64,000 bases of DNA, taken from the NCBI GenBank assembly GCA_965285935.1, contig OZ260661.1:61814001-61878000 (forward strand). The letters are read 5' to 3'. Position 1 is the first letter of the stretch; each line of letters begins with the position of its first letter. This stretch comes from Ophelia neglecta (Eukaryota). The notes beneath the pieces were generated by a model that saw only the letters and a program-made list of their open reading frames with translations, was not told the DNA's origin and ran no database searches. This document shows, piece by piece, positions 3,846 to 63,341 of the stretch. The position numbers and the translations under genes were made by a program.

Positions 3846-4233
3846 CAGGTAGTCACGCAGCCCTCATCATGACAATTTCCAGGTAAACGATCAAACACTC
3901 ATTGCCTTAATTGGGTATTTATTATCCGCCCCGCCTAATCCTATTAACTGCGTTACCTGAGCAAATAGTCCTTTGTTCTCAGGTGTGTGTAATGACAATC
4001 ACTAAACAAATGATTGTTGTTGAGGTGGCAGTTCTACACGGACTGATAAGCGTATCATATCGGCATGCAATCGATGTCACACTGGGCGGAGATTGGACCC
4101 AGGTGAGGCGCTGATTGATTCTGATTGGCTCGCCAGGTGTACTGATTGATGGGCGTGATGTGTGCGGCCACATCAGCAGGTGAGAGACAGGTTAGAGTGG
4201 AGGAATGAGAATGTCGCAGGTGACAGATACCTG
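3846..4233. promoter_or_regulatory. Dense cis-regulatory module (ZEB E2-boxes, GC boxes, CCAAT, Pbx/Meis-type sites)
   Basis: Nine CAGGTR/YACCTG hexamers, GC boxes at 3926 and 4084, ATTGG at 4092 and 4124, TGATTGAT at 4112 and 4143, TGACAG at 4221; CpGs are locally retained. Confidence 0.55.
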
Positions 4234-5512
4234 CTCTCATTCGCCTCCTTCATCTTTTAACCTTTCAGCCATGTTGTGCCTGTGATCATGTTTATCTTAA
4301 TAGAGTTATATGTATACTTAGTTTTAATTCATCTGTATACTTTTTAAAGAAGATTTCAGTTTAGATTTTCTTTGTACTATACCACTGATTGATTTATTTT
4401 TAAAATGCTGTCAAGATAACTAGTATATATTTTTCTTATGGACAGGTACTGCTTTATTAATGAAGGCTTGAATCAAAAAAAATCTTTTGTTTTGTAACAA
4501 TAGTTAGTTACGGGTGTTGTGTTATCTGCGAAAGATAATATTGCAGCATAATTTTATCAGGTTAATGATTGTCAATTTATGCCTGCATGTATTTTAAAAT
4601 TGGCTTATGAGGTATATTGGACAGCAAGTATATAATTTTGTGCTTGTCAAGCACTCAGATCACCAGAGTGAGATGGGCCATCCTGTGAGGAGGGATAAGG
4701 TTGAGATGGTGTCAGTGTGGGAGGGGTCAGGCAGGGGTCACCTTGTAGTAGGCTGGTTCATGTACTATGGGTCTCTGACTAGCAGACAATGCAGTATTGT
4801 TTTAGATTTGCATGCAGGTCCCAATCCGGCTTTGGCTGCCTATCTTCTATCAACAATGGCTGGAAGTGCAGCTTTTTATCTACCGTTGTGCATGCTTCTT
4901 ATGTGTTTTAACTGCGTGTTCATATAATTTCTATTCATTGAATGATTAATTCCATAGAGTGGTAAACTAAAACAGGAAATAAATTTTACAGAGTAAATAT
5001 TTACTCAACACTCATGAGCCAAAAATTGGCATATTAACTAGTACAATTTTTTGTTAGATGGCTAAAAATTCAACTTATTCTTGGAAAAAAATGCTCTGCA
5101 ACACAGTATTAATCATCATCAATTTAATTTGAGGTGACATTAAACCTGAAATGTTCATTTTCATTTAAATAGCATGATCTTACATGGTTTATTTCATGCC
5201 CTGACGAAACTGGTGGTATTAAGGGTGTGAGTGTTATTCTGACTATAAAAGTAATTGCCAAATTCAGAATTACATCAGCTACTTTTGTGGATAACATCTA
5301 CCTAAATTATTGTGGCTTCATTATATGGTATTCATCCCTGTGTAACATTTGACATGACTCACAGACTTAATTCTCTTCCAACCTGGCCATGATGAGGAAA
5401 TAGTTTTGTGCTTGCAAATTTGTGCTGAAACAGCCAAATTGGAGCACAGAGGTCTAATAACTTAATTTAGTTGCCAGGACAGTTTATAGAGGATGTACAC
5501 ACGATTACCTAT

Positions 5513-5735
5513 TGTCTCGATGGCTGAATGGTAATGTGCTTGGCCTGTTCAGCAGTAGCAAGGTCTGTCTATACCCATGTGTAGCTGATAACAAGGCAGT
5601 TATCTACCCGCCTAAATAGTATAGAACAAACACTTCACCTAGTATGTAAATAGTGGCAACCACATCACTCAAGAGAGTAGGCACATTTGATATGAAAAGA
5701 ATATGTGACTTAAACAGTTAAAGTAACCAACTCAA
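5513..5735 (+). mobile_element. Possible degenerate tRNA-derived SINE
   Basis: Begins with a Pol III A-box-like TGGCTGAATGG and ends in an A/C-rich tail; no clear B-box. Confidence 0.25.
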
Positions 5736-7999
5736 GATAGATTTAACACAATGTGCTCAGTAGTAGCAAATGACTTTAAGGAGCATTAAAGTGGGAAAAT
5801 CAGTTTGGAAATGGGCGACAGTCATTTTTAATGAGCTTGTGGTTAGTTTCAATGACTTAAACAATCTACAGTAGTTTAAATTTCAATTGTGGTCCCCAAT
5901 TTAAGGCTAATTACGGTGATTAGGCACTATCAGTAATATCTACCAGGTAACACAAAGGTAATACGTCTTGTGGTCACAAGAAGATCGTGTGCCAGTGAAG
6001 CCTGACCGCCTGTCGTAGCCGCTCTCAATTGGCGCTCGGCTACAATTGCATGATGAGTCCCATTGTTAGTTGTACAAATGACACCTTTGGAATATCTCAT
6101 TATGTACCAATCATGTTCTTACTCTAGAGAATTATAGCATGCACAACTAGTGTGAGTAATTTATGGTATTCACTTAAAGTGGTTAATTGTGTGATGGAAA
6201 ATTGCTTCAATTATTGCCAAATTGCATTTTGAAGCATCTCAAAACTGTAATATACTGGTCTTGGTGTTTGATTGTCGCTAAAAATTCATTACCTAACTAG
6301 CTGATGGTATGACAGATATACATGTAAATATCAAGTTCAGATATTTTTTCCTATGATTCATGAGGGATGATATCTCAATTCTTTATTTTTAGACAGTTGC
6401 AGTATTTTATTAGTAACCATAGACCTAACTAAATACTAAGGCTAGCGAATAACACCGACTCAGCTGCGACTACGAAAACAAAATAAAAGGAATTTTTGGT
6501 TTTCTTACTGATTTCCCTGTTGATGTGATTTCCAATTAAGGAAGTAATGTTATTTGATAATTTCACTATATTCAGGTCTATATGGTATTAGAACAAGGAT
6601 GGTAAGTGATAACATGGGATGTGACAGTGAAACTGAAACTTTGTATCACATGAATGGTATGCCCAATATAACACAATACTCCTCCTTGACTTCAAATATA
6701 TTTTATCAAAGAAAACACCACGATATGGTATTGCAAACATTAGGATACTCTTATTTGTTTTTTTGGCAGACATGATGAATTAGGTTGCCAGAAAGACTAA
6801 CACACAGGAGTGCTCAATAAAGCATTTTGTTTTGGCTAATCAGATAATCAGATACAAATTTTTGTTTAGTCTCTGTGTCTACTTCTCTCCTGGTGCCCTG
6901 CCTTAGTCACGTAGGCTGAGAGCAAGTCACGGTGGAATACTGTGATAAGCTCCGGCAGGTGGATATTCATGTTTGCCACCAATAATCCCTCACTCCCCTG
7001 TCTCACAGTAATATGAACCGCAGCCTTTCTTGTGCTGAAAGTATTTCCAATTATGCACATATGCAGTATATATTCTCCAGCCCAGGTCGATGCAGCTGTC
7101 CTGTGTCCCCACCGGACCTCTACCTTTCCACCTTAGGTATGTGACTGCCTGGTACAAGACCCTCCCTCAGCTCAACCCTGGGTACAATGTGTGATATCAG
7201 CTCGGCAGGGGACCTGAGGTAGAAATGACTGAAACAGTTGACATTCTTGTTTACAAATATCTGATTTAATCATAACTCTTTGAACAGTTGATAGAGGACT
7301 GCCGAATGGTAGAGTTAAACAGGTGGCTCTGGATACATCTCTTTTCACTTAGTCACATACTCACTAGTTTGGAAAGTAATTTGTTTTATAAGTAGATGAA
7401 ACATCCATGTCCTTGTAGCTGAATCATGTCTCAACTGAGAAGTCATTAATTATGTTCAGTACGGTTAAGAGTGAAAGCTGAGACTTTAGAACCAGGTGGA
7501 ACATTCAAGTTTAAATGTATGAGAGGCAGGTCTAATCTTCTAGAACGTAGACTTCAAGATATATTAGATGTGGCCTGGTACTTTGAAACCATTGACATGA
7601 GTGTGGCATATATGAAAAGTTTATATAGTGCCAAATGAAGGAGTGCACGTTTTGTTGAAAGAATCCTTCTAATGGTGTGAACCGTGCAGAACTTATGAGT
7701 CATTGTATATCCATAGCCTAAAAGAGGGAAAAAATATATCTGAACAGTATTTTTTATTCCATAAATATTTAGTTATATGCATTGATCAACCACAAACACA
7801 TGCAAGTTTCCCACTTTTATAGGAGTGGCGATATCCCGTGTGACATGCCCACATTGCCCGGGTGTTTGTGTTACAAATGGGGGGAAGAGAGTTGGTTGAC
7901 AACAAGAACATCCTCTGAGTAGCTGTAGCACCCCTATAACCCACATGTACACAAGTGCTTACAGCATCCTGCTATTGCTCGGCTCTTGGATGCTTGGGG

Positions 8000-8013
8000 G
8001 TTGCCATGGAAAC
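8000..8013. promoter_or_regulatory. RFX X-box GTTGCCATGGAAAC
   Basis: 14-bp match to the RFX consensus GTNRCC-N(0-3)-RGYAAC family palindrome. Confidence 0.5.
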
Positions 8014-11000
8014 AGAATAAATCCTCAGCCTGCAGCTGCCCTCTGCTTGTGCTTGCAGAAAAGATGATCCTGAGCTTACCATTGCCTTAGCTGCATTACA
8101 AATATACGCTCTTTTACTGGATCAGTATCAGATCTAGGAACTTTATAATTATCTTAATTCAGGATGTTAGATAGAAATGTCTTTGATTACCAAGCCTAAG
8201 TTAGTTGATGAGGTTTAAATACTTCCTTAAATCACACTTCTAATGTACATACATGTACATGTTTATTTATGCTTGTGCCTTCTACACTTCTGATAAATAA
8301 TCTGTCCACTCACCAGCTTACAAACAGTGCATTGAGATCAGTTTTGGTATAAAAGTAGTCCTCCTTCAATGTCTTTGTCATATTTGTTTTAAACAAACAC
8401 GCTTTAAACTTATTTAAAATTGTTTTCTTAACAATGGCTTGCTGGGCTGACCATTTAAAGTGTTTGTATTAAATTCAGGATATGTTGATGTAGTTTATCA
8501 GATTGATATATTCCTTTGAATATCAATGTACACCATTGACAGAACACAGTAGGCAGGCAAACACACATATCATGATCTCAGAGCAGGTTTGGTTAGTCCA
8601 GGGTGATTGTTTACATAGGTAAGCAGATTACCTGGGAAGGTGGGCTTTGATTGTTTCAATTGGACAGGCAGATCAAATAGCAGGACCCCCTCCAGAGGTT
8701 GAAATGGATGCAGTACAGCCTTGGCACATGGCAGACAGGTGGGGAAGTTAGCAAACAGATGTAATCACACAGGGGGCTTAGTGAGGGGATGTGTTCAAGG
8801 TAGCCAAGAAGGAAGGCAGACAGATCACTGCTTATCAAAGCGGGAAGACCCTGATCTGTCTTTTGAAGATTTGGGACACAAGAAGCAATGTGGACAGAAG
8901 GGCCTGGAGGATGCTCTGAGGGAAGTCCGAGGACCCTAGTGAGACTACACTCCAAAACCAATGAATTGTGTGGACAACAAGGACCAGACATGGTTGACTG
9001 TACTCAGATCAATATTGATAGGTATGAGTCACTATGGAGCCAAATTGGATGCAACCAAATGTGTCTGGATAAAGATCACAGTATTCAGTCACTGGCAATT
9101 CTCTAAGAAGGAACTTTCAGATCTTGATATGGGCTAAGGTGATTTGTCAGACGTGTAATTGTGGCCGCTCCACTCTGACTAAGCTGAGTTATTATCCAAA
9201 ATTAGTCGCATTGATCCCGATACATCCCTTTGAGTCTTTACTTCAAATTTGTCCAAATTTGTGGCAGTTTGGTATTGTCAATGATAAATATGAGGCACGT
9301 TATGAGGCATGTTTGCGATTTTGGAGTCCTGTACTGGAGCAATTATATTGGAGCACTTCCTGGCATTGGAGTGTGTCTGTCTGCTTAATTAGGGCTGTGG
9401 GTGATAAACGAGCCTCACAGTACAATACACCTAGGCAATTCAGACTCCTATTATGGCCACCATTGCTTACTTTCAATAGGTACTTCATACCTCCTAAATT
9501 GCTGCATGGGGGCTTATGTAATTACAGAGTCAGCCAGCAAAGTAAATTTATTTTTGATTGTCAGTGAAATTGATTATGAATATAGGGGAAATGTTATCAG
9601 AACCCTTGTTATATCAATGTCTGAATATTGGTGCCACCTTTGTAATTCATTGATGCAGTTTTTGCTCAAAAAAAGTTCCACTAATTTCAAACCACATTGT
9701 TGAAGAATGAGATTACACTTGATTGATTTTGTTGTTTCATTAGATTAGGTAGGTACTTTAGTCTGATGAGATGGATATAAGTAAACATGGAAATATTCAT
9801 GTTTCATAAATCAGTGTGAAAATTGATTAAATGCCTTTCACCTGCTGCAATGAAAGTGATTTTCTGCCACATGTGAGGTCCCAATGGGAGTATATCATGT
9901 CGGCACCAAATGGTCTGCAGCCTCGATTTACCTCAACAGTTATCTCATCTAAAACACCTTGCACTCATTAAAATTTGCATTAATTCTGACTGGCTCTGAC
10001 ATTTTGACAATGTTATCAGGATCGCCATCCTGTTTATCTGAGCGGATATCAGGGTATTAAACTCAGGGAGAATTAAGGAGCCATCATATTTGGTGTCATG
10101 AGTAGTCAACCTGTATTTCCTACACACAAACCTGATAGCACCAGCATATCAACCATGTTGGTAGACAATTTACTTTGCAATTAAGTCCCTCTGCCACTCT
10201 GTGATAATTATTCATTCTGTCTTTCTTTGAAGAGCTTTGTCAGTTGTTTTTGACAGAAAGTGTTTGTAGGGTAGCCATTTCCTGTGTTATAAGTTGGCAT
10301 AATACATCCTCATCCTATTTGCACACCTATCTCTGTGGATGGATTTGACAACTCTCAGGAAATAGAACATGTAACATTTGTGAAGAGGGGTGGAAGGTAG
10401 TAACTCTCTACCAGGTTGACAGAAGTTTGGCTGGTGGTTGGCTTTTTAACTAATTTGTGAGAAAAAAAATCTGGCAATGAATTTACCCTCTTTCGAAACA
10501 ATAATCAAAAGCATCATTTGCGATGTTTCAGAATTTAAGTGACTAAAAGTGGACTATTCTTAATCCTTGTGCCCGAGCATTGTAAGTTCCTGGAAAGCTG
10601 CCACCCCTTTTGTAAATGGGCTGGCTCAAGGTGTGTGACATAAAGGGGCCTAGGTGTGCCAGACTGAGCATCACTTTCCAGGTGGACACACACTGCCTAA
10701 GTCAAACTTTGCTGCAGATATCCCACTCCTCCCATGTCAGCATCAGCAGCTGATTCTAAGAGCAGTCAAGTCTTTTTACCAAGGGACTGGCACAGAAGTG
10801 ATTCATGCATGTTTGTTAGTTTTGTTTTCTTTATAACTTGGGGTAATTTGAAGTCAAGTGGTTGAGTGAAGTTTTCGAGCAGCTCATCTCGGAGGGGAGA
10901 GAGATCTTCAGCATGGTTGAATGGCATTTTGTTTTAGGTGAGTTGTATGTTTTTTTTCAACAATATTGGTCTTCTTGCTTTATTTGTTGTTACTTTTGAA

Positions 11001-14000
11001 GGAAGCACCTTTATTTTTGGTGCACACAGGTGGAAATGCAGGAAATTAAACTGTCATGTAATAAGTGACAGAAATGATAGCCAGACTGGTATGAAAATAC
11101 AGGGGCTTTTGATATTCTGTTCATGTGCTGTTGTTGCAAATATGACATCAGTCAATTAGAGCTGCCTGTTGCATGTATAAATTCCACCTGAGTGTGCTTC
11201 TGGTTCTGTCGTATAAAAGCCTTTTGGTGGTGTGTGAATGCCACTTGTTCTAACAACACCAGTATAAATGATGGATGATGGATCACCCAAATTCACCTGG
11301 TTCTGTGTGCAAAACACTCCAATCTTGTGATATATGGGGCCAAATATGACATTCTGTAAATTGAGTTTTGTCTTTTTTATGGAGAATTATCCTCATACGA
11401 CCTTTTCTATCCTGGCTGTGGACGGTGGTTTGATTTGAAATTTCAGATCCACTTGCATTGCTGTAGTATTCATTTTTTATTGGACAAATATGTTGCCATT
11501 TCACATTCTGAACATATATTTATTGTACTATACAGATAGTTTGCTCTCACAAAATGTGAAAGGTAAACCAGTTTATTAGATTCTGTATTTGATTTCTTTG
11601 ACATAACCTCTGGCATCTGAGAGGTGGTTCCACTCTTGCCATGTAAAGACTTGAGCAGTCATTGGGAAAAAATGCTGTAAAAAGAGACCCACTGATTTTT
11701 ATCATCAGACATGAAGTGGGCTTATTGTGACCATAAAAGCTATCGTAAGATGAACATGATTAAGTTAAGCTGAAAAGAAATCCTGGTGCAGCATTATAAG
11801 AGTCGGCATTTATTACTAATATTTGGATAATTGGAAAATATTTAAGATTTCTTGTATAGATTGTGCTCTCCCTTAGTCTGATAATAGCATCTTGATTTTA
11901 CTATTATATAAAGCTAGATTGTCAGTCACCTCACTCATAGTATAAGGCAAGGCATGTTCTAGGGCTTCAATGAGAAAAATTACCTCTTTTGAATGTTTCA
12001 ACTTGACAACTTAACGATTCTTTTCAATGGTGTAATCCCAAGTTAAAGGCCATTTCTAATCAATTTAATATTCCTATTATTTACTTTTCTATAAGCCATT
12101 CTCATTATTATAATTTGGGTGACTAGGCCAACTGGTCAGTTATGTGAACACATGGCGTGGTCAGCTGGTGGTGGTCATCTGGCCACTGTCCAGTTCTTTC
12201 ACTTGGTCAACTTTCATCTCCCTCCATGGCGTTGACTTACCTAGCCAGCCACTAACACTTCACACAGGAATAATGACAAGATCTTTCATTCACAGGTGTT
12301 TAGAACTGCTAGCTTTTGTTCCTACCAGCACTGAGGTTTACAGGTTCACTAGCCTTGTGAAAGTGTGGCACACCACTCAGAGCCTCTATTATGCCGCACC
12401 CCTGGGGGTATGTTTGGCGAGGGAAAAACTTTATTAAAGGTTACAATCCCACTCTGCGGGTGAAAGTTGTAGTTTGACCTCAGGTGAAATCAGCTTGTCA
12501 ACTACAGACCACATGCTGCTCTTATAATCTGGCAATTCCCTTGTATCACATGAATTGTGACAATTGTCCTTGTCTGTCTCATGTGAAATTGTTTACCATC
12601 AACATATAAAGCATGGCGCGGTTTAAAACTCATGTTGGTAAATAAATAAAACAAAACTAGAAATCTAGCAGAAAGTGCTGTCTCTATTGTTCGGAGTCGA
12701 TGTCTTGTTCAATAAATGTCCAGATGGGTAGACACTGAGCCAGGTAATAGGATCCTCACCGAGTGCCCAAGGAGGTCCTTATAGGCAGATGTGGGTATCA
12801 CTCTTTATACCTTGTTCCAACCTCTTAATTGTCAGGAGCAATGATCTCATTATGCATAAAACCCCAGGTATTCTGTATCAAGTAAATCTGGCCGTGTATT
12901 TCAGTCCACTTACCAAAAGAGTGCCATCTTCAGTGTGTAATTGATACTATTCAGAGCAACAAAATTTTTGACATGAAGGAGATTTTTTTTTATTCTGTGG
13001 TGAAAAAAATTGTATCCCAATTCCCACTTTGGGTTTTGCTTGTCATTTTGTTGTATTGGTTTTGTTGTTTGATAGGAGACAAAGAGCCATTTGATATGAA
13101 GGTGCAAGGGGATTATAGGCTGAGGCCTAATCCCATGAAGAGGTAATCCCCTGAGTGCCGTATTGACAGGGTTTGCAGAGGTGTCCCATAGGTGTTTAGT
13201 ACTATCAGAAACTAGTGGACTAATGTCCCATCTTGTCATTCACTTTGTTTGGTGAGCTCTAGAACAAATGGCCTCTGCTTTGTACATGCCATTTGTCCTT
13301 TGTGATCATAACACATCATTTACATAATTTTCATAATTTCTGACCATTGCTTTGGCAGTATGATTGTCATAAATTTCCCCAAAGGTCCTGTAGATCACAG
13401 AACTGTGCAATACGATCCCTTGAGGAACTCCTCAATCCTGCTGCCTTCAACTGCAGAATGAATTCCACCTGTCTGAGATTTGCATATTTTTCTCATTTCA
13501 AGGTGATTTCAGAGGGAATTAGAAAAAAAATCTCTGCCAAGAACAAACAATAACCTCTCAAATAATTGGGGTTAGTCCATCCCATTGTTGATTCAATTGT
13601 TTGATCTAGAATTTGTAAGCAATCGTGTTAAATGATAATATCGGGGATGAGGTGGGATGAGTACAAAGCATTGTAGTCATTATTCTCAGAATAGGATCAA
13701 AACAAACGTTATTTAAGTGCAAGTTTGGCCCTAGGGAAGGCAGGTAATAAACATTTTTCCTTTCATGTTTTACCTATCGGATAATTATAACCAGAGGATA
13801 TGGCGGTGAGGCGGGGCAGGCGGCTAAAAATGACCACCTGCCCAACCACCATACGCCATAATGATAAATGATGTCCCTCAAAAACAAAGACAATCAGGTG
13901 ACTTCAGACAATGAGTGATAATGAATCATCTATTCATGTGAGGTAAGAACAAAGTTGGCTGGGAAAAAAAGACTATTTATTAGGATGGATGTAATTTGGG

Positions 14001-17000
14001 AATGCTAATAAGGATATCTGAGAATAATGCCAGTTGCTCAATTTTCTTGTCGCTGCATGGCTTTGTAGTGGTTGAAGATGATTTCTGGAGCTGAGCTACT
14101 CAGGTTTTCTGACTTCATTATGGAAATAGAAAGAACTAGATGAAGATATTGTGTTGAAGTTGAATGCAAATGAAACGTCTAAATAAACGGTTATGGTTGA
14201 ATTGAAAAATTAGCTGCTCGAGTGGATACCTGTCAGGCACGCTCCACTCTGGAGCCACTGAACTTACTGCCAGAAGTGCTCTGTTTGAATTACTAATTCT
14301 CATTAAATTAAATTGCTGATTGTTACTAGACAATAGCTCATCATTCAGATGATAAACTTTATCTCATATTTCGTGTGTCAATATAGACATGTGATTTTCT
14401 GGTACTCCAAGCCCATTCTGTAGAGTTGGCCACCAATATTTATCAACCAAACAATGGAAGGATATAAAATAAGGAAAACTAATATTATGAGTGATTTATT
14501 CACCTGGTGTTTATTTTTCTGGGCTACATCTCTGTTCATTGTGAAATAGATCTCGTGGTGCTTTCAGTCTAATTTGGAAATCTATTTGGTGTCCAAACAT
14601 GAAGACAATTCAGGTATTCTTGGCACTTCTGGGAAGTTTGCATGGATAGCTACCGGCTCTGTGGAAAAGTTAATTGTTGTTATCAATGTCAACATTTAAT
14701 CATTTTGTCCACTTGCGTACGCTCTACTGCCATTTCAGGCTTTTTGCCAGTGATAATTTGAAGTCATAATGTGAAGAGGGCGCTCCTTGTGTCACTTGGA
14801 TTGCTGCGGCAAACAATGGGAATGGTGGCCGAGAAACTATTACTCCACAGCTACCTGGTCATTGAGATTGCAATAAAAAGACGATAAATCACCTCTGATG
14901 TTTATAAATTTCTTGCCAGAGTATTACCTGTTCCGCTCAACATGAGTACATGATAAATCATTCTCATTTGCTGTCATGCTCTAAACTTAATGTGAGGCCT
15001 CGACAGGACCATTTTCTGTCAGGTAGCACGCTCCCCTCAAGTATGCATAATGTAGAACCATCATTGGTTCATAAGAAAATAGGGGCAGGCCGTCAGATTT
15101 TCTCATGTCACTGCTTAATGAATAGTGGCCATTGTGTGCTTGATATGGACAAAATAATCTAAATTTTCTCACCCATGGATTATCCTGCAGTCATGTGTGG
15201 GAAATAGATTGGTGCATTTCATCAATTCCAAGTGTCACTCCATTGCATTTAATCAAAGTAGAATCACTTTTGCTGAGAAGAAGCCAAAGGTACAAATTCG
15301 GGAATCAAGAATGTCTTATTAAACCATATCGAAGATTGTTTGCACAATTTTTGAATTGAATTGAGCATGCCATGTGATGCACTCTTCTATAAATCATGCC
15401 TGCCAGCTTGAAATGGAAAGATTTGATGGGATTGTAAATAATGGTTGGTGTTGGTTGGACGCGTGTGAGGCACAGGTCGGTCGGCTGCCTGTCGCATGGT
15501 CTGTCCTTCTACCTTCCCAGAAAGTAATCCTCGCTCAAAAGCTTGTTGTTTGCACTGAAGCACGATCCGACCAATCGCACCTGATCGCAACAAATGAAAA
15601 CACACAGACTGTTTAGTCGCACAGGAAATGAAGAACTTGATTCATCCCTGCAAATATTTGCCAGAAAATCCTACCCCCAGGTTAATAAAGATGATGGAAA
15701 ATCGTAGATCTCTGCCGAGATTGGTATGCATAAAATGCCACTCTGATTGAATGGACCACTGCAATACCCTAAGTAGTAGGTATTTTGTACATAAAAGCTT
15801 CATTATGGAGCAATGTTTATTCATGTGTGGCGCAATCCAGGCGAAATAAGACCAGATTGAATGAACGTCTCTGCCTGATATTGCAATATTTTAATCATAT
15901 CTTAAAAGATAAATACACTGTTGTCATATTCTGATCACTAAATATGTTGGTTCTGGCAGCCAGTAACTATTATGGCTAGAGACTTATGGTAATAAAAATC
16001 CTTTTTATTGTTTTTTGAAAATGTCCAGTCCCAAAACCATGTACTGTGGGGAAATTTTAAACCCATTTAATGTACCACTGTTTTCTTCTGCAAGAGGCCA
16101 GGACAAAGACTTTGAAGACAAAGAAAGGAAAACAGTTATGTGGTACCTTTATGTGAAGGTGGTGGCATTAATCTCCCTTGGTGTGACAGTTTTTATTAAC
16201 CATTAATGGTGCTGTCATGGCCTTTCTGGTTGAGCTGACCGGTAGGCTGGTCAGAGATACTGTTACTGGGCTCTGATACCGTGCAAGTGACAGGAGCCCA
16301 GATGGACCGGTGATCTAACACTGACCACGATGATCACTTAAACCATTTCTCACCTGGAAGTGTCCCTTCCAGAATGGCTTCATTATTTGACAGCAGTCAG
16401 GTGGAAAATCATCCCTGTAGCGTTGTCGTAGTCAGCCCATCAAGGTGTACACTAGCGAACAAAGCCTGGCACGGGCAGCACGTGTCTATTGTAAGTCTGC
16501 ACCACATAAGTGGACTTCTCAGCCATATGAGGTTGTCACACGTTTTACAAATGTCATCACCCGATGGGAGATCAAGTGGGATGTCTCCTGTGCTCTACGT
16601 AAGCAGTCATTGTTGTCAAAAACAGCGCACCTTGGCTTGGCAATGAGAAACAATTCTGAACCAAACCAGCCATGCATTGAGTGGCTTTACACGGTGCTTT
16701 AGGGATGTGACTTTTGAGAAACATTGATTTGTTCATCAAAGGTTAGCTAGGTGTGAAATGGGAATCTGAGCCCAGGATTTGCAGATGCCATTCAGCCAGG
16801 TTATTTTGCTGTGCCAAATTACTAGAAGACCAGTACAGCAAGAGTGGATTTAACCAGCCTATTGGCCCATGAGTTCCTTCAGCAAATGGGCCTTGCATTC
16901 CTATTCACATCATTTAAAACTCAGCAATTGAATTATTATTTTCTCTTTTTACATGTATGGCTGGGATTTTCCAAAGGATAGATTAACCAGTCCACTGCTA

Positions 17001-23620: not shown

Positions 23621-23634
23621 GTTGCCATGGTAAC
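23621..23634. promoter_or_regulatory. RFX X-box GTTGCCATGGTAAC
   Basis: Near-perfect 14-bp RFX palindrome. Confidence 0.55.
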
Positions 23635-28117: not shown

Positions 28118-28141
28118 GGGGGGGGGGGGGAGGGGGAGGGG
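28118..28141. repeat. G-tract (G13 A G5 A G4)
   Basis: Read directly; G-quadruplex-capable. Confidence 0.9.
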
Positions 28142-31931: not shown

Positions 31932-32198
31932 AAGAAGACCCAGCTGTGGAACAGGGCATGAACACCTTAGATTCCCAGATTGACCCTGAGTCAAGTGTCC
32001 AAAGCTGCCAAACAAACCATAAAGCTGCAAACAGTACTTGCCCTGAAGAATTGAAGCCACTAGATGTGAAACCCCTGGAAGAAAGCTGCCATGACAGCTC
32101 CCTGGATGCACTGGAGTCCCCTACTTGTATGACTCGAACAGAGGAAGGCCTTAGCCAGGAATCCGATATGGAACAGAGTAGTCTGACTGGCGATAAAG
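31932..32198 (+). CDS. ZEB: ZEB coding exon (acidic N-terminal region)
   Basis: Acceptor ttttccag|AAGAAG and donor AAAG|gtaaaa; open frame [16 protein letters not shown]...GDK, phase 1 at both ends. No family motif in this exon, so assignment rests on splicing and adjacency. Confidence 0.75.
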
Positions 32199-35100
32199 GT
32201 AAAAATCCTTTCAAAAATTGAACCATCCTAAGACAGGATCATAATTACCAAAACCTCTGGAAGAAAGTGTGTAATTAAAATTTTATTTTTGTTCTTACAG
32301 ATGACGAAGAGTCTAATGTGACTGGTGACGGCAATAAATCAGAAGATGAATCGACAAATAGTTTAGAAGAGAAAAAGGAAGGAAGTGAAGAAAAGGCAGA
32401 GGAGAGTGAAGAAGAGAAGATCCAGGAGTTGATGAATCGCAGTGACACCGCAGTGATCTTCCCTGAGCCTGTCAGCGACCAAGAAGACAACCTAGAAAAT
32501 GAGGATGAAAACGATGGTAAGAAGTTATTTTTACATTTATAGATATTCCCAAAAAAAATGTAAAATATTGGGGAACCTTCGTTACAGACTATTAAAACAT
32601 GGATAAGATTGTAACATCACTTCATATTAAATTAAAAATATCCTATCAGCAGTATTGTCTATTAAAAACCAATTTCTGAGCAGTAAATTTGGCAGCTTTT
32701 ATTCAGGCTGTGCTCTGAGACTAAGCTTTTATCCATTTTCTTTCCATTTGATTGTCGATAGTCAATAAAATGTGCTATAAGCTGGAATATATATTATTGC
32801 ACTCAACCACAAATGGTCAAACTGACTTAAAATGAATTCATACTCCCGTACACAAGTTCCTTTATTGTTCACTATCTTTGTATTTGAAATCCACAGTGAA
32901 AGCTTCATTTTCTTTAAAACATATAATGTGGCTATTCAATTTTAGCCGGTCAGGATGTATAGTGTAAAATGCAGGTATATTTGGTCTGTGACATTTTAGA
33001 AATATTGGTGGAAGTGGCCAGGCATGTAGGGCCTGTCATCTGGGAGAAACGACAATGTCTAGATCACATCGCAGTCCCAAAAGTCACATGATTATCTTTG
33101 CTAGCGCCTTTGACAATTTCCATGTTGATCCATGCATGGCAGTCTGGGGACTTGATGATATTGATCGCTATAATTAAGAATTGCATGAAAATATAGGCTC
33201 AGCCACCTGCACTATTACAAAATTAGATGTTGTATCCATAAACATGTACATGTACATGCTTGTTGGCCAAAATATATGGTACATGTTAAACATCTTCTTT
33301 TGTTATTGGCCATAGAATTAGTTAAAGAAATGTCTCTGTTAAGAACAAGGGAACTTCTATTATGAGAAATATAACCAATCATTATTTGAAATGAATAAGC
33401 AAAATCGTTGATTGAATCATAAAGCTGTTAAATTTATATAAAATGCTAATACTAATATGTTTATTAAAACTGATTAACTTATTGATATTGATTTCACCCA
33501 ACTAATCAACTGATGTTTAATTTGTGTTATGCTGTTGGATTGATCCTTTTTTTGGACTTGGCCGAAATTATCATTAGAATGTAATTTCTTCTTGATATTT
33601 CATTTCTATCTATTTGGCCAATTTGACAAGGTTGAGGGATCGCACCTCGTAGGAGGGTCCATGATTTGCATAGGGTTGAAGCAGAAAGCCTCCCTGAGGA
33701 GTCCTGCTCTCGTGTAGCTGCCGTAAACATCATCCGCATCATCAGCACTGTATGACCGGCTCCCATCAGCCTGGCGTCGTAATATCACTCGTTTCATGCA
33801 TCTCTGTTTCAACATGCTTAAAATCCCAGAAAATGTCCAGATTTCTTTGGCTGAGTGCACTTGAGGGAATTGGGCCTAGGTGTGTGCAGTTTGCAGATCT
33901 GTGATTGCAGCCCAAGAGCGGGGATATTAAACAAAGCATGTGACATGTCCTAACCACTGGGGTGACTTTTGTTGTGCGATGGCCCATCCATTCATCATTC
34001 CATCACAATGCATAGAGAATATCTAATCAGATACGTATCAAAGGATTAGTTCCTTGTGCGCTTTCTTTGGCTCAAATGGCATTATTATGCATGACGGGGG
34101 TGTACAGTCTGGCATTCGATGTGAAAGCATACAGCAAATATAAGCAGGTGATCTGTTCTCCTCACATCTCCCAGCACTGGGGTCAGGCTTGACTCACTGC
34201 CTGAAAGATTGAACATTACTTGGCAATGTCAATAGTTGTTATCAAACAAAATCTCTCTTGCACAACAACTCCTGCTTAATTTCTCCTGTCTCCTGAACAC
34301 AGCCTAATTGGAAAATGTCAACTTATCTGTGAAAGAATGACCGATGTCTCATTTTCCGTGGGGGATGGGTAATGTCATTGAAACGCATTTGATTGGATGC
34401 CCACTCTGAATGACTATAATCTCTGCGGAGCAATAACTTTTTGTTGTCAGTGAACGTGTTTCTTGCTTTTCCTCTTGTCTTTTTATGGTATTTCGATAAA
34501 TCAAAAATCTTATCACGTCTAGTTCTTCTGATTATGTAATAGCATAACATCCAATCTAGCTGCTAATTTATTTGACAAAGGACATTTTATCCTTCAGGTA
34601 GATTGTTGGTTAAACACCTCAGGTGTTGAATTAACCTTGGCTGTCTTGAACAGTTTACTAATTAAGGCAGTTCCCATTGTCTGGCTGGGTGAGGATGAGA
34701 GGGCCAGATATTGGAGCATCTTGTCAAATTGATTTTACTCTACAATTACATGATTACATCAATTGTGTTTGCCTTCTATTTACCTGCAGGCTCACTGTTC
34801 TATTGCTTAACACCAAGACGCTGCCCCAGGGTGTGTGATGGCAATTCCTCACACTGGTAAACTGGCCTTGTATGATTAAATAATGCATTTTATAGTTGTC
34901 TACCTTGGAGAATCCACTATGCGTGCAATCTGGGACTTAGCAAAACTTGCACAAACCTTCAGAGGTTTTTTTTTCGTAATAAAGGCGAATTATTTGATTG
35001 TTTTGTTTTTTTACAAATGAATCATGATAATTCATCTTCCAACCTTGATGTCAAATTCCTATCTAAAATTACTGTGATTGCCTTTTTTATTTTTTCTGGA

Positions 35101-38100
35101 GATGGTATTTCCATTCATTTAGCTATGCCTGGCATTTGAAGCACATCCAAACCTGGCAACCTGAGTTGTTGAGACTTGGAATTGAGAAAACAAGTGTCAT
35201 AAAATTTGTATGCCTGACAGGATATTCCACTTGGCATTGGAAAGGTACACCTTGAGGCCGTCAGATTGCTCATTGAGTCACACCTTCTCATCTCCAAACC
35301 TACCTGGCAACGAGCATTAAATCAAACAATTGCTTTTATTGGACAACAGCTGCTTTGGAGTTTTTTGGCAGATTTGTCAGGAGTTTTGAGCAGGGCAAGC
35401 AGGATGAGTTTATTTGTATGCTGTATGGCGTGTGTTGCGTCTAAATCACAAGGGAGCTTGTCATTCTTTTGTCATGCGGCTGAGAGGAGATGCAGGTATT
35501 GTTGAGAAGCTACCTGGCAACGTGTGGCCTTGTCTCCTCTCTCAGACAGGGAATCACCAGGAGGGAACTGACTCCAATTTAGTCCTGACTAACACATTCA
35601 AGGCATTTACAGTGTCAAATCCTTTGGCTTAAGTCCTGCCATCAGCACTGTGTAGCCAATCTGCAGGCTGTGTTTGACGCTAGTTTGCCCCTCCATTTGA
35701 GAGAGCTAGGGGACTGGGTCCTTAATGTATATTGGCTCTCAGGTGCAGGCCATGTCGCTATTCTCATCAGGTGTTGTTATTGCCAGTGCGTCCTTTAGTG
35801 TACAGGTATCTGGCACATGCCCCGCAAGCTTAATGTGCTGCTTAAAGTGATCGTCTTCACTTATGGATTCAAAGCACTGTTCTCCGATGGCCAGTAAATG
35901 TCAGTGCAGTGAAGAAATGCTGAGTCAGGACCGGCACTGTGCACCTGGCGATGGGACTTGCCATGTTGGAGACTGCCAAGTGGCTCACAACACTCAAGTC
36001 TCCTTCCATCTTTGAAGTGGCCAGTTTAGCCCAGAACACCTGGTATATTTATTTATACATGAGCCTTACATCAAAATGAGCAGAAGACTGTTTTACCTTG
36101 GCCGTCTGTCAAACCCAGATCAGCCCCGCCAGTGTATACCTTACGGAAAATACTGTCAACCACTGCACCTCCTAGAATAGAAGGTCTCATTTAGGACTCA
36201 CTGGAAGCTCAGTGTCTCTGCTCCATTTATATAAGTATGTATACATTTTCATCCACCCTGTAGCATTTTGAGGAGTCTTATTGTCCTGTTAAAGTAAAAT
36301 TCAAATACAAGAAAAAAAATCAGGAATTCTACCAACTCAATTTTGTGAGTATTTGCCTTTTGAATGTCTTGTAAGTTGCTGTTAGGTAAGACAGCTAAGT
36401 TTTGGCCACAACAATTCGTCAAAAAATGGTTAAAATCTGTTCTTTCATGACGGTTTGTCCTGGTTTGCTCATTCACAGTGATTAATGTAAAGGAAACAAA
36501 TATACTTTAAAGTCTTTATTTAGTTCCTAGTGTTTTATTTGATGTAGCATGGTAATTCCGCCCCAGGACCACTGAGCCCCAGGCTGCTGATCATGTATGT
36601 ATTGATTAGGCCTGAAATCCACCTTGAAGGGATACCATGTTGGCAATCAGTTACTCCCCAGGTAAATCAGGAGGCACTGTTCCCCTTTAGCCTCCAGCAA
36701 AACACTAACTATGAATTTCAAACAAAATTCTACACAGGAGCCATTTTATCAGATTGCATTGATTCAACTTGTAGTTTTTTACCCCTACAACCCTTCACAT
36801 GGAATTATTGTGTCTGACAACTTTCTCTGTGCTTTACCTCCATTGGAGCCAATATGTAGGCAGTGCCCTTGGACATGTTCACTTACAGTCAGAATCAGCT
36901 GATACCAAAGCAAATTTAAGGCTCTCCACACAATATGAAGTGAATCAAGTGGTGTTTTACCTTGCTCTTAGTCAGCAAAAACCTCTGATGTATTGAAATT
37001 CCAGCAGTTGGCTTTGAGAATTCCATCCTAATCAAGGCAGACGGAGCACCTGGGTGCCACATTACTTAATTACCTGTGGAAGCAAACACTGCACTGTGGC
37101 CCATTGCTTGCTGGGGGTTGTGATGAAAACATGCCCCGTCACACTTCAAGGTGAGGACACGCTCCCTAAATAGGTTGTATTAACAAGAGAGTGCTGCCAG
37201 GAAGCTGTTGCTTTCTCCACCATGTCATACCTGCTCATCTGATTAATTATTTAGCCAACAACTAATCTATGGTCTACGGGTTTTTTTTCTAACCAATGAG
37301 CGTGTAGTCATGAGATGCATTGGTAAGTAGATTTAATTCTACTACATGGTTTTAAACCTGAGTATAGGTGGTAGGTGGCATGTCAGGTTTTAACTACATA
37401 GAACAATATCCTGTGGTGTAAATCTGATAAGCATAGGTATTACAAAACCTCCAGCTTCATACCCAAAGGTGAAAATACCTTCAAACTGAGAGTTTTATTT
37501 GTGTACACCAGTTTATTCTATCCGCCTGCTCTTTGTTGACCATGTTTCTATTGTTTTTTTCTTCTGTTTTTTTTGTTGCACTATCTTTTGGATTATATCT
37601 TCATGTATTCATGCTTTTACAGAATAAAGTCTATCTCTTGTGCCGTTTGAAGAATCTTAATTGATTTCATATTTGAACTACTGTCGCTTCATTCTATTGC
37701 CAAAATGCAAAATTTTTTAGATTCCTGGCCAAATTATAAGGCACTGGTTTTTTGTATACTAGACAAGAAACCTGAACAAATCTTCTGAGAAACTTGTGTG
37801 AAAATAAATGCCAAGATATTTATTAGTCAATTTACTAGTTGGTTGAAAGTAACTAAGGGAGACAAATTCCCCTTCTAAAGTTTTGTTTATCTGAACACCT
37901 TAGTTGTGTTATTGACAGGTTCCTGGTTCTTATCTCTAAGGTGCTCTAATGTGACTCCAGAGTCGTTAGTGTTGCTCAGTAATATGTTTACGGCTATTCT
38001 TCAATTGTTCATTTCGATAAGGTTTTTTTATGTTGGAAGTTTATGCCAGGCAAGTGAGAGGTAGGGCCGCAGATCCCGGTGAGCCAACACCTGCTTGGCT

Positions 38101-41100
38101 TAGAAACGGGGAATATTCTACTAGGCAGTTTTGTGTGTTAGTTAGAGTTTCCTGTGATAAGGACAGTTTTAATCCTAATGAGTGTAATTTAACAAATGAC
38201 CAAGGTAACAGTTGCAGCAGGATCTGACTTGTAATGAAGTTAACCAGGAAGGCACAAATCATGCTGAACCGAAGTTGTGAAGGAAGTACAGGTCATCAGA
38301 AGACCAATTTAAACATGGGAGGTGGTGCTGCCCACCTGTTCTTCCTGGCTCTCTGCAAACCCGTTCAGAAAGAATTCATGTTTACCTTGGCTTTGGATAA
38401 TCTTATAATGATGATATTGCATTGTTCTAAAGAGTTATTTTATAGAATGGCACCAATTGCAATGCAGTTATTGGTCTGTTTCTCTAAACGCACTGAGTCA
38501 GCTGATTTATGGAAGATTAACAGTTTCCTGACCAAGATTCTATTGCAGCCAAGGTCTGTTTTCGCTGAGCACACAAGGTTTGATTTATCCCAGGTAGATA
38601 ATGGAAATCTCAGGGCTGAGCATCTTGCCGTCACACCTGGAGATGCAACTGTTTATTATCAACACTACCTGGACCTAGTCAGGGGTGCACTGCTGCAATT
38701 CATGTGGCTAACAAACAGCCACATGTGATAGTCTCTTTGTATTTCAAGTTTGTCAAGTTTTTTGTAGATCATTTTTCAAGTGCACATCTGTTGGACAGGT
38801 ATTTTGCCTGGTACATTGACAAATTCTTTTTCTGTTATATTGTCATTTAATTTAATAAACTTGCTGTTTAGTGAATTGGGTCTTTCTCTATATTCAGTAC
38901 CAGTACCTGTCCAAAGGATATGTAACTGCATGTTTTTCAGTAAGTTCTGGTACTTCAATTGTTCTGTAATTTAGCAGCCTCAACCGTCTGCCTCTTATCC
39001 AGTGGTGGTGTTTGTCAGAACATATCAGTACTTGGTTAATAGATTCTCTGCAGGTTAACTTCTCCCAGGACCTTCGCCGTATTTACTCACTGTTTTTATT
39101 GTTGCTGTGGCTACACTTTAAATAGTTATCTAACTTGATAAACAAAGGGAGTAAAAAGCAGGAAGACAAAGACTACCTGGTTGCTAGCTGCCTCGAGCAT
39201 TTTACAGAGAGGAGTGCCATTTATTTAGCTGCCTCTCATTCTGAAACCAGATAAGCTATTTCTTGGTGCACCTGTTCTACAGGTAGTCTTTTTCAAAACA
39301 TAACTATGTTGTTAAAGGTGTGTTGGTACAAAACTCTGTTTTTCGATGCCTGCTTAAACTTAATTTTAAGGTTGGGTGCGATGTACCAAGAAAAACATAC
39401 ACCCAGTTGGTGAATTACTGCAAATTACTTTCCACCTTGATCTCGGGGCAGAATTCAGGGAATTCCAATTGCATCACTTGTAACAGGATTTGTTTTCATT
39501 CTGTCAATTATAAATTTCATTCTATTTCCTAAGGCAAGGAATACAGACCAGGGTATTATGTGTAGTTGCTCAGTACTGGTCTCAACTTAGGAGAAAAGTG
39601 TAGGATTTATCATACCGTTGAAATATTGCTCAGTTAAATATAAAATGTTTAGTCATTTATAATTGGCATCTGGCATATTTGAATGCCTTGCTCTGTGTCT
39701 CAGTGCATTGTAAAATGAAGAGATCTGGTGATAACATCACACTTGTACATGTATGTTTTGTACCTGTTGGAGTAAAACCTGTGCTTGGTGCCATCTTCCA
39801 CTTAAATATTCATTGATACCTGAATGCAGCATAGAGTATATTACAGATGCCTCAAACCCATGGAATTCGAGACAAGGTCGATTGCCATTTAATCATTGGG
39901 GATTGTGCTGTGATGGGAGGGTATATTGAGGGAATGGCATCTGAGTGGGGCGCTGGAGGCGAGAGTTTCACCTCCAATTTGTATTCTGACATCACAGCCA
40001 CCATTGCTGTCCAATCTCCATCTCTGCTGTATTTATGAGTCATGGCGCCCGTTTTCCACCCTCTGCAACTCGAAAGCTGGATTCTATGGCCAGACTTTCA
40101 CAGATAACTTAGTTTACCTGTTTGTATTATTGTGCGATAAACCAATTACCAAGACCAATCTCGGCTTGTTAGGGTTGCTTGCTGGTTCTATTGAGAAGGT
40201 GAATACTCATCATTATGCTGACAAATTCACATCATTTTCACCTGAAAGGTGTCAGGCAGAAGAGGCGGACATATTTGCTTCGTCACATCTCCCAGATTTC
40301 CCCTGCCATTGTGCCTGCTGTGCCAGAAATGGACTTGATTGTCAAGCAAGTCTGAGACCGGGACCCTGCAGAAGGTGTATTGCATAAGCTATCAGCATAT
40401 TTTTGCTGTCCAGATGTATACACAGATGGCAGACTGTTTATTTCCAGCTAGGCACAGGGCATAACTAGCTGTAACACCTCAGTTATTCACATGGTAAAAT
40501 TATTACTTCCTAATGATAATCCTTGGACAGGTTTCACCACTTGCTTTTAGTGTTATTACCAACTGTATACTAATTAAATCACCTACATGTACCTATGTGA
40601 TGGTGGACCCTTTATCATTAAAACTTAGCAGTTAATAAATATATACATGTAGTACCAGAAAGAGAGAAACTTATAAGCTTCATGTACATGTAGGTATGTA
40701 AGAGAAGATCTCCTGCTGTCTTCATGTCAGTGAGAGGTCCTGGTTTGCCTGCTACACAGATGGAGTCATTATTCAGAGGAAATGAATTGATATGAAATCG
40801 AATTAATACCACTTTTCATTGAATTAGCACGCATTTGGCATTTGATTGCCTCATCAGCGTGGGCTGTACCTTTGTAATGTACTGTGGATATTGTTCTCCA
40901 AACTATTTCATTACCGATTTTACTGGCAAAGTCTGGCTAAAATCACCTCCCTACAGGCGCTTGTAAAATCAAATTATACCACTTCGGTAACAGTGAGCTA
41001 CTATATACCAGTCAGACATTTCATAAAATAAACAGTTAATTTCAGAAATACTTATTCCAAATAATCAGTTTGGTTTGTTTAGTATTTTAATTTTTTATAT

Positions 41101-44100
41101 AAAGGTATTGCTTTTATTAAATTGAAAAAAAAAAATTTCTAATAATGCAGTTGAGGTCTATTGAGTTTCAATTTAGTTCAGTGTGTGTCAGCATTTCGTT
41201 TGCTTTGAAAATTATTTAAATCTGTACATTAATAAAATGTATGATAATCTTATCAAGTGAAAGGAAAATGCTAGACAAATACTAGAGGATACCTCTTCTT
41301 ATCGTAGAGGGGGATGACCTGGCATGAAGGGCTACCTATTCAATCTGTATTCATTATTTTAATGCAAGTCCACAATCACATTATCTATCTGTGTGGGATG
41401 TAGGTAAACAGGCTGTTTGCTTGGATTGGCTGGGCAGATTAAGTGGGCATGGAAATGTAGCCTCCACCTGAGAGAGTATCCATTAGCAACATTGAGCTGC
41501 GTGGCCGCTCATTTCCGCATGACGTCCAAATATTAAATGGCTAATCGGGCTCATGTGCAGAGATGCGAATACCAAATGGGGGCAAGTGATTGAAACTGAC
41601 TTTCAAGTAACGATATTTTGCCATGGCTAGGCAAGGCACTGGTCATCAAAGCAGCATGATGCTGTCCCATATATATGTGATGGAGCAAATACTGGTATTG
41701 CTTTTACCAATATTGGCCTAACTGTAGGCTACCTTGTAATACATATTTGTGAATGCTGACTTCTAGTGGCCAGACTAGTAACTAAATGTTTCTTCTGCCT
41801 GCTCTGTACAGTTTAAACTTCTGTATGCCAAGCACTCTTGAATGGGTCATAATGGACCTTTGGTCGTAATTAAAGCGAGTAATTGTGTAAGCCTCATTAT
41901 GATATTTGTGGATGACTTGGAACATTTACTTGGTTCATTTTGGCTGACCTTGTTATAAGTAATATATAAGTGCACACTGATTGATTTTGGTATAAACTGG
42001 TAGCTAAATTTAATAACAGCAGGACAAGGTGAAGTGAAGTGTGATGGGAAATGCTCTCTGCTGATGAGCTCGGAGAGTTGACAAGATATTGACAGTGCCT
42101 GCCTATCTTCCTTCTGATTAATGAAGCAAACTGCATGGTCAAAGAAATAAACTCATTATAGCGAAGTACCCACACAATTTACATGACAAAGGGGGATGAT
42201 TGCGTTATGGTGTTGGGGTATATCGATTTTGTGCTGGCAAGGTAGAGCAGGGACGTTCATCATGGGGCGCTGAATGGGTACGTTATCGTTTCTTTTGCTC
42301 GACTGAATCAGTCCGAGGAAGTAGGTACTTTTGACAGCTAACAAGGTGTACAAAGGAAAGCCTGAATAGACCTAAATAACCTGGAATTTCTTGGGAATTT
42401 CTATGGCTGCTGGCCCACTCTGCTCATTTTCCCCATCAAAATAAATTCCCTCTAGGTTGTTCAGAATGAAAATATCTCAAGACTTTTATTGACTCGGCCT
42501 GTCTTAAACTAGACAAGCCTGTCACAAAAATGATGGGATTTAATTTGCAACTTCGTTTATAGTTTTGTCATGTTGTTCGTCCATACAACTGACACATCAT
42601 TGCACAAATCATAAAGGTACAAAGCATTTCCTTATTTGGCCTGTGTATATTTGGATTTCTGGGGACAATTTTTATTGGAATTAATTTCATACCTCTACAG
42701 TCAAACTAAATTTGTTGATTTCATAGATGAGCAGAGTGATCATATTATATACTTCTCTTTATTAGAATGCTGGTAGTATTTGTCTTTTTATTTTCCCTGA
42801 CGGGTTGCCAGTGTCCATATGCTCGGAGCAGATGTCCTTTTCGGCCAGCACGTGTGACAGGTGACCAGGCAATCATTATGGCACTTTTGAGCTTGCCTAA
42901 CTCAATTGTAGTCCATTGGCAACCAAACACCCTTTTTCTAAATTGAATATTTATGATAAATGTCATTGTTTTTCTGCCAACGTGATCAGCAGACTGTTGA
43001 TATATAGAGTGGAATTGGATCACCTTGATGGCCTTTCTTTTGTCCAGTCATGATAAACGGGCATATCTTCAGCTACCTAGGTAGTTTCCAGGCAAAAGTG
43101 TTGCCATGCATATTTCACGGCAAGCTTTTAGGTGTTATGACTGCCTAAAGCATAGTGCCTGAATGTCAATAACTAAGGGAGATTCTATAACAAGAACCTG
43201 TTAAATTGCTTTTGGTACAGGTTCTGGGCATACATGTACATGGTAGTGAATAAAACAATCAAATATGTACTGCATTCCTTTCCTCAGTCAGCAAGAGAGG
43301 CGATAGTTTCATTTCAGATTGCATTATTAATATTTGAGATTTATAAAACTACATGCTAAATATGTTATTAAGGAATTTATAGTGATGTTATGTTGGCTTG
43401 CTGTCACACACATTTCTGTATTTAATGTTGAAGGACTGTGTAATTAATTTCATTGAAATAACCCTAGTTTCTGTTGCTTTCAGAAGATGGTGACTCTGAT
43501 GAGAAGCATTCCTGTCCACAGTGTGGGGTGGCCTTTGTGCTGAAAGTCCAACTGGAGAAGCATATGGCTCTACACTCTCCCACCTCCCAGTCCTGCAAGA
43601 TTTGTATGAAGACTTTTGCCAATGTCTATCGACTGCAGCGACACATGATCAGCCACGAGGAAAGCTCTGATCTACGTAAATTCAAGTGCATTGAGTGTGG
43701 CAAGGCCTTTAAGTTCAAACATCACCTGAAGGAGCACACTCGTATCCACTCGGGTGAAAAACCATTTGAATGTCCTAACTGTGGGAAACGCTTCAGCCAT
43801 TCAGGCTCCTACAGCAGTCATATGACCAGCAAGAAATGCTGGGTGGTCAATCTGAAGATGAGAGGCCGAGGAGATAAAACACCAGAGAAACAGGAAGGGA
43901 TACTCCGTCCTCTGGTTCCCAAGGCAGGCGAGAACGGCATTGAGATGGGAAACTCTCCTATGTATTCCATGTATCCACAGCAATTCATTCCTTTTGATCC
44001 TTCCACAGCCGCCAGTCTGCAGTCTCATCTGATCGCCCATTCATGTATGAACGGCAATCGTCCATTCCTTCCTCATGTACCATTCAATGTTGGTCAAATG

Positions 44101-53159: not shown

Positions 53160-53303
53160 TGTAATCGGCTGAATACTACTACTTATTGGCTAGCCATCGT
53201 AAAGCAAATACTCGTTGTGCCATCTGGCGAGTGAGATTTGCTTATCAGCTCATCAATCCACATGTCAGTCATGTGACTGATTAAGACTACTACGATTTCC
53301 AAA
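53160..53303 (+). promoter_or_regulatory. PECR promoter / 5' UTR
   Basis: CpG-retaining stretch just upstream of the ATG, with ATTGG at about 53185, a CTCF-like GTGCCATCTGGCGA at 53217-53230, an M-box/CLEAR-like GTCATGTGAC at 53268-53277 and a YY1-like AAAATGGC overlapping the start codon. Confidence 0.55.
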
Positions 53304-63266: not shown

Positions 63267-63341
63267 GTGAGCAAATTATAAAAACTTTATTTTCCAATTC
63301 AGTATTTTCCATCTTGCTATTTCAAACGGTCGCATGTGTAA

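Follow-up and report, generated by a model that had tools for sequence, protein, structure and literature searches.

A twofold excess of AGGT(A/G) words across the ZEB locus of Ophelia neglecta: a candidate signature of autoregulation

Does the non-coding DNA of a ZEB gene carry the binding word of its own product, and if so, is it ZEB that reads it? The question was raised by an initial annotation of a 64,000-nt stretch of Ophelia neglecta DNA (hereafter the window; G000:C1:61,814,001-61,878,000, in a 762-Mb genome, with negative coordinates lying to the left of the window start), which described the introns of a ZEB gene as rich in CAGGTG and CAGGTA and proposed either direct autoregulation or control by Snail, Scratch or basic helix-loop-helix (bHLH) factors. 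We observed a twofold excess of AGGT(A/G), or AGGTR, on both strands of this locus, with borders and a word profile of its own, that is absent from 170 other tiles of the genome. As this ZEB-type word is doubled across the locus, ZEB probably attaches to sites throughout its gene and thereby holds down its own output; all steps past the sequence statistics are inferred.

The clusters of CAGGTR (YACCTG on the other strand) that drew attention to the locus were counted exactly in the initial annotation, with 9 sites in 3846-4233, 15 in 26755-29035 and 8 in 35301-36042, while the control region at 53300-64000 is poor in them as stated but holds 6 instead of about 5. The suggested comparison with shuffled sequence (dinucleotide-preserving, 1-kb blocks, 200 replicates) bore out the excess, as the 107 CAGGTR in 3846-43100 compare with 39.1 +/- 6.1 in the shuffles (maximum 56), against 6 versus 8.5 +/- 2.8 in the control region. 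Among strand-merged hexamers of positions 1-43400, CAGGTG ranked first and CAGGTA third under a dinucleotide model; this excess was gone under a tetranucleotide model (1.10-1.13) because the real unit is the shorter AGGT(A/G), whose two versions come first and second among all 512 pentamers whether a dinucleotide or a trinucleotide model is used (305 versus 147.6 in dinucleotide shuffles). In 2.5-kb bins, the best-fitting enriched block extends from -12.5 kb to +45 kb (AGGTR 431 versus 211), followed upstream by a shoulder of about 1.4-1.5x that reaches the neighbouring gene on the opposite strand, which encodes PDZ and PTB domains and which we take to be RGS12; past the large ZEB exon the ratio is back to about 1. 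The total surplus amounts to about 240 AGGTR words on both strands of about 70 kb of non-coding DNA. The description of CAGGTR-rich ZEB introns thus holds as far as the excess itself is concerned, but the enriched word is shorter, its spread is mostly diffuse and it also occurs upstream of the first coding exon.

The gene is recognizable from the open reading frame at 43468-45888, which codes for C2H2 fingers and a homeodomain and has an annelid ZEB as its nearest named relative. Two C2H2 clusters flank the homeodomain, as in ZEB/Zfh1 proteins, and the homologues carry the names ZEB, zfh1 and zag-1. The first coding exon, at about -6362 to -6305 and resembling mollusc ZEB N-termini, lies 6.3 kb to the left of the window, so that the introns of the initial annotation are intron 1 (38 kb) and intron 3 (11 kb). 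Among the 150 of 1596 candidates that were scored, matches above 50% over the finger cluster came only from the two clusters of this locus, indicating a single-copy gene. Its recognition helices are near-invariant in comparison with 120 protostome homologues (KFKHHLK in 118 of 120), and we assume their identity with those of the vertebrate, fly and worm ZEBs of measured specificity. None of 28 PDB matches was a solved ZEB finger structure. The features are as follows, with ZEB exon borders inferred from reading frame, homology and splice consensus.

1..31931, portion of ZEB intron 1 that lies within the window (the complete intron measures about 38.2 kb and starts at -6304), with AGGTR at about twice expectation on either strand (complete intron: sense 176/77.1, antisense 115/65.7)
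31932..32198, plus strand, ZEB coding exon 2 (acidic)
32301..32516, plus strand, ZEB coding exon 3, with a conserved stretch that also occurs in ZEBs of molluscs, nemerteans and annelids (lowest tblastn E 3e-13)
32517..43483, ZEB intron 3, AGGTR 1.93x sense and 2.46x antisense, with 8 sites clustered in 35301-36042 and 14 in 38088-40244
43484..45822, plus strand, large ZEB exon with the N-terminal C2H2 cluster, the homeodomain and, at about 45310, a PLDLS motif of the CtBP type (a role that we presume); the AGGTR excess stops here
46696..46888, plus strand, ZEB exon with the first finger of the C-terminal cluster
47313..47596, plus strand, last ZEB coding exon with two C-terminal fingers
53300..64000, control region with short-chain dehydrogenase and aldose 1-epimerase exons, AGGTR flat (35 versus 37.4)

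In intron 3, we found no exon for the extra first finger that related ZEBs carry before the large exon; it may have been lost.

For comparison within the genome, AGGTR was counted in 10-kb tiles after masking of tandem and shared repeats, and tiles with less than 3 kb unmasked were dropped (9 of 179 non-ZEB tiles). Random tiles were taken from four large contigs only (C1, C2, C5 and C7; 35 of 40 kept). A first set of transcription factor (TF) loci comprised 40 tiles at COE, Meis, Zfh2, Hox, Sox, Irx, NK and a PRD-class cluster; Snail, Scratch, Insm, FoxP, NFI, Runx, Pbx, Cux, Onecut and more of Zfh2 were added later. The locus names in the first set follow Pfam matches and what we take to be their family features. 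Pooled ZEB tiles gave an observed/expected ratio of 1.94 (492/253), compared with 0.98 for random tiles, 0.95 for the first TF set and 1.02 for the flanks (16 of 19 tiles). The seven ZEB tiles individually reached 1.56, 1.72, 2.17, 1.84, 2.07, 1.96 and 2.23, six of them above the maximum of the 170 non-ZEB tiles (1.63; mean 0.98, standard deviation 0.20). This maximum belongs to a lone tile with transposon-like open reading frames, the adjoining tiles having 0.94 and 0.89. The CAGGTR hexamer separates less sharply: the lowest ZEB tile has 2.10, a level that 5 of the 170 tiles attain, and three of these 5 lie at Snail or Insm loci. High values among the random tiles and at -145 to -105 kb were due to tandem repeats; with these masked, the tiles gave about 1 or no longer had enough sequence to be kept. 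The region from about -141,000 to -108,000 contains an array of a 483-bp satellite with high CpG. Since the tiles sampled cover about 0.2% of the genome, a handful of loci elsewhere could be just as rich.

Which protein reads the word can be approached through its variants. Relative to background, the ZEB locus shows CAGGTA at 2.25, CAGGTG at 2.14, AAGGTA at 2.35, AAGGTG at 2.23, TAGGTA at 2.21 and TAGGTG at 1.79, weaker values for GAGGTR (1.2-1.4) and CAGGTT (1.74), and flat AGGTC; A and G are equal at the last base, with C, A or T in front. Single changes within AGGT abolish most of the excess, with one exception at few counts (CAGGCG, 14 sites, 1.72), and the seventh base of the Zelda-type word CAGGTAG is without preference. 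ZEB proteins bind bipartite, spaced CACCT half-sites, often CACCTG (PMC10048071), and ZEB1 binds CAGGTA Z-boxes (PMC2396950, PMC11422717). The profile fits ZEB half-sites better than it fits the alternatives named in the initial annotation, of which the bHLH option lacks support: other E-boxes range from 0.42 to 1.16, none clearly enriched (CAGCTG 0.66, CATATG 0.42, CAGATG 1.14, CAAGTG 1.16). That ZEB is instead the target of Snail or Scratch, with some bHLH input, through the common CAGGTG/CAGGTA appears unlikely. In flies, Snail binds the two hexamers equally and is found on zfh1 regulatory DNA (PMC3909790), so that Snail may supply part of the C-starting third; three Snail genes and two Scratch genes are present in this genome, the loci of ZEB and of Snail both show a surplus of CAGGTT (1.74 and 1.85, respectively), and the tight 3846-4233 cluster consists of full CAGGTR hexamers. 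However, two-thirds of the surplus words (158 of 245) have no 5' C, and such words, at 332 versus 174 (1.90x) at ZEB, are flat at the Snail, Scratch and Insm loci (0.90-0.94x), where only C-starting words are raised; furthermore, CAGGTG preceded by a purine is the weaker class at ZEB (31, versus 49 preceded by a pyrimidine). Regulation of ZEB by another DNA-binding protein with an HAGGTR preference seems improbable to us. It would account for TAGGTA and AAGGTA, which make the enriched set wider than the documented ZEB consensus (binding of ZEB to either was not found documented in the literature portions searched), but such a protein would have to match the ZEB half-site by coincidence and yet spare about 17 other TF loci, and self-binding is suggested as the general cause by Cux, FoxP, Runx and Scratch, whose loci favour their own motifs as described below.

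AGGTR is also the core of exon-intron junctions, and a role in the pre-mRNA, as splice-donor-like, recursive-splicing (AG|GTR) or U1 sites in long introns, would agree with the mild sense bias of intron 1 (176 versus 115; P=0.03 after composition), unlike intron 3, and with a few sense sites that are preceded by a pyrimidine tract, e.g., near 24108. Yet the antisense strand is enriched as well (1.75 in intron 1 and 2.46 in intron 3), upstream DNA is symmetric (1.63/1.68), splice extensions are at background (GTRAG 0.96, GGTRAG 1.17, acceptor words 0.91), the pyrimidine content before sense YAGGTR is 0.50 versus a background of 0.51, and other long introns are flat. Recursive-splice or U1 sites, expected on the sense strand only, with a GTRAG extension and a pyrimidine tract, were rejected on all three counts; for the bulk of the words this explanation is largely refuted, and we give it a very small chance overall. 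A neutral origin, through CpG decay, local mutation bias, decayed repeats or post hoc choice of the word, is quite improbable, although the locus is CpG-depleted (observed/expected about 0.3), the tile borders were set after the profile had been seen and polymorphism shows no significant avoidance of AGGTR. Equal density in other CpG-depleted DNA, the outcome that the initial annotation had set against its own proposal, was refuted by 70 such tiles (AGGTR 2515/2504), and the autoregulation reading withstands this check; GC/CpG-matched tiles had a raw density of 3.87 per kb (54 tiles, maximum 5.59) versus 7.07 per kb at ZEB, and CpG-depleted long-intron TF genes among the controls showed no enrichment. 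AGGTR density is unrelated to CpG-rich spots (rho 0.03) and the top word, AGGTA, contains neither CA nor TG. Repeats were rejected as a source, with ZEB tiles 0-2% repeat-masked and none inside by self-BLAST. The best pentamer at most other loci is far weaker (P 1e-2 to 1e-7, except Cux with 1e-12 and Zfh2 with 1e-28) than that at ZEB (1e-25).

How the sites are arranged bears on the claim that they form many intronic modules with the paired layout preferred by ZEB. The scatter is near-Poisson (mean 7.1 AGGTR per kb, variance 9.1), and no 400- or 750-bp window at the ZEB locus exceeds uniform scatter in AGGTR; one clear cluster and a few denser spots remain of the modules, the rest being mostly diffuse. 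The paired layout is not clearly supported: no distance between AGGTR pairs at the locus is preferred, while CAGGTR pairs at 6-60 bp show a modest rise (33 versus 20). At a density of about 7 AGGTR words per kb, chance by itself places a second half-site close to many of them. Two stretches were compared with the locus-wide rate.

3846..4233, densest cluster, 9 CAGGTR in 388 bp, P=0.0005
26755..29035, dense stretch, 15 CAGGTR (P=0.08) and 35 AGGTR (P=0.0095)

Only the former is clearly denser, the best 2.3-kb window for CAGGTR having P=0.08, and the 35301-36042 cluster (8 in 750 bp) falls short of the best 750-bp window (10). The 3846-4233 cluster also has CCAAT boxes, GC boxes, two TGATTGAT words and raised CpG, and is likely an intronic enhancer or alternative promoter. 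Its sites at 4100 and 4177 double as possible splice donors; an alternative promoter or first exon within intron 1 may lie here.

Related loci were sought in a metagenome scan (79 loci; 13 redundant loci and segments with less than 1.2 kb unmasked were removed). Upstream of the finger exon, 13 ZEB segments had a pooled AGGTR ratio of 1.44 (227/157), with 10 of 13 above 1, compared with 0.78 in 7 segments downstream of ZEB and 0.90-0.94 in 30 segments at other homeobox loci (rank test P=0.003, the loci not being independent). Clear excess was seen in L123 (2.07), L114 (1.74) and L139 (3.09), and in L123, a divergent ZEB, AGGTA ranked first of 512 pentamers. This suggests that the excess is a recurrent but not universal trait of ZEB genes.

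We further noticed that other TF loci of this genome, namely Cux, Zfh2, FoxP, Runx, Scratch and Snail, bear their own motifs, taken here as consensus words. In an unbiased ranking, the top words included ATCAAT at Cux (1.97x, P 1e-15.6), TAATT/TTAAT at Zfh2 (P 1e-28), RTAAAC at FoxP, TGTGGT at Runx, GCAGGT/ACAGGT at Snail and CAACAG/GCAACA at Scratch; TAATT is common to many homeodomains. In a 17 x 17 matrix of loci by motifs, 6 motifs scored highest at their own locus and another 5 had it in second place (permutation of mean ranks, P=1e-4, or 7e-4 when ZEB and Zfh2 are left out), P values that are optimistic because the motifs were written after the word rankings had been seen. Several developmental TF genes, mostly repressors (ZEB, Cux, Zfh2, FoxP, Runx, Scratch and Snail), might bear a locus-wide self-signature, that is, tens of kilobases of non-coding DNA with a 1.7-3-fold level of the own core motif, in which weak selection maintains hundreds of scattered sites of low affinity that let the locus sense the level of its own protein; we put this forward tentatively, as somewhat short of an even chance.

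Along individual loci, TAATT/TTAAT at Zfh2/ZFHX is raised 1.61-2.04x in six of six tiles (G000:C5:76,120,001-76,180,000) and declines to about 1.2-1.4 further 5', the highest non-Zfh2 tile being 1.66. At Cux (G000:C12:15,840,001-15,910,000), ATCRAT is the top word by a wide margin (2.05x); RTAAACA is at 1.89x at FoxP (L216-L222) and TGYGGT at 1.66x at Runx (L230-L235), with a peak near the Runt exons. Three clustered Snail genes and two Scratch genes in head-to-head orientation (L204-L210 and L196-L203; G000:C5:47.70-47.77 Mb and 66.89-66.97 Mb) are each rich in their own type of CAGGTG context, and the Insm locus (L211-L213) has CAGGTG at 3.26x.

Besides the sense bias of intron 1, the Snail binding in flies and the undocumented AAGGTA and TAGGTA, several results weigh against autoregulation by ZEB or fail to favour it clearly. 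AGGTR pairs at 16-60 bp occur as expected (155 versus 158). Among the metagenome loci, L107, L117, L127 and L141 are without excess (0.72-1.07), several of the 13 ZEB segments are related, three compact loci are biased to the plus strand, CAGGTR by itself does not distinguish the upstream segments of ZEB (1.64) from those of other homeobox loci (1.44), and the non-ZEB locus L143 scores 2.2-2.8; the repetition at ZEB loci of related animals that had been proposed as a check was thus only partly obtained. Allelic differences in one sample (about 5 per kb; 40 of 193 and 38 of 38 listed) altered AGGTR in 3 of 78 single-base cases versus 4.7 expected (P=0.30), or in 2 if an adjoining double change is scored together. 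In the matrix, own-motif signatures were absent at Pbx, NFI, Onecut, Irx, NK and Insm, and those at Meis, COE and Hox were weak. A 41-bp insertion/deletion polymorphism separates two alleles at 34820-34862.

On balance, we consider it probable, from word statistics, that ZEB binds half-sites across its own locus and feeds back on its own transcription. Its two finger clusters would read AGGT(A/G) words, many weak and loosely spaced sites would act jointly, with a few denser spots such as 3846-4233 and no fixed-spacing pairs, and binding over the locus would damp ZEB transcription. A negative sign of the feedback is slightly favoured over a positive one, on account of the CtBP-type motif and of a nematode precedent, the mouse precedent being positive. 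Mouse Zeb2 binds and activates its own promoter (PMC10048071, Birkhoff et al. 2023). There, too, a ZEB-family gene is the direct target of its product through CACCT(G) half-sites, but with one dominant promoter-proximal chromatin immunoprecipitation peak, activating and proven by deletion, whereas here a diffuse excess over 60-70 kb is read from the sequence. Caenorhabditis elegans ZAG-1 represses its own promoter (PMC4256384), likewise an invertebrate ZEB that controls its own expression, though at a promoter in a compact locus, with no locus-wide word excess reported in the available portion of that paper. At vertebrate TF genes, own binding sites are over-represented nearby and predict autoregulatory loops (PMC2527657, Kielbasa and Vingron 2008); those sites were conserved, within 3 kb of the start and pooled over genes, with ZEB unnamed in the portion available, whereas ours come from one locus, tens of kilobases and no conservation filter. 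Fly snail (PMC12135202) and worm unc-3/COE, through promoter and intronic sites (PMC13192591), show negative autoregulation. Self-repression via own sites, including intronic ones, is common to them and to the present proposal, and the Snail locus here tops on RCAGGT, but they involve discrete enhancers or few sites and other TF families. ZEB genes also belong to the set that has conserved non-coding elements on its flanks in human, fly and worm (PMC1852409). A locus-wide own-motif excess was not found in our literature search, with subscription papers and supplements outside its scope (the peak tables of PMC10048071 could show intronic Zeb2 peaks). ZEB autoregulation in itself is already published.

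The locus has further features. At a distance of about 0.7 Mb from ZEB there is a series of homeobox genes resembling a Hox cluster, and FoxP is 0.2 Mb away (G000:C1:60.5-62.1 Mb). Its putative 3' untranslated region (49640-51993) has matches to what we take to be miR-8/miR-200-type seeds, with 7-mers at 50324 and 50486 and five 6-mers, which could represent the conserved ZEB/miR-200 loop, though they are near chance level. An Rfam search of the window gave zero matches.

ZEB genes are dosage-sensitive and known to regulate themselves via one or few mapped sites; here, the feedback may span the whole locus, and such feedback would escape single-enhancer deletions and conservation scans. If the self-signature is true, specificity and autoregulation would be readable from word counts at the gene, with the prediction of HAGGTR for annelid ZEB and TAATT/TTAAT for Zfh2. 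As this genome has further TF loci with an excess of their own motifs, it becomes testable, by word counts in any well-assembled invertebrate genome, whether selection acts on scattered weak sites and whether they have a function, and such counts give motif predictions for animals without binding data.

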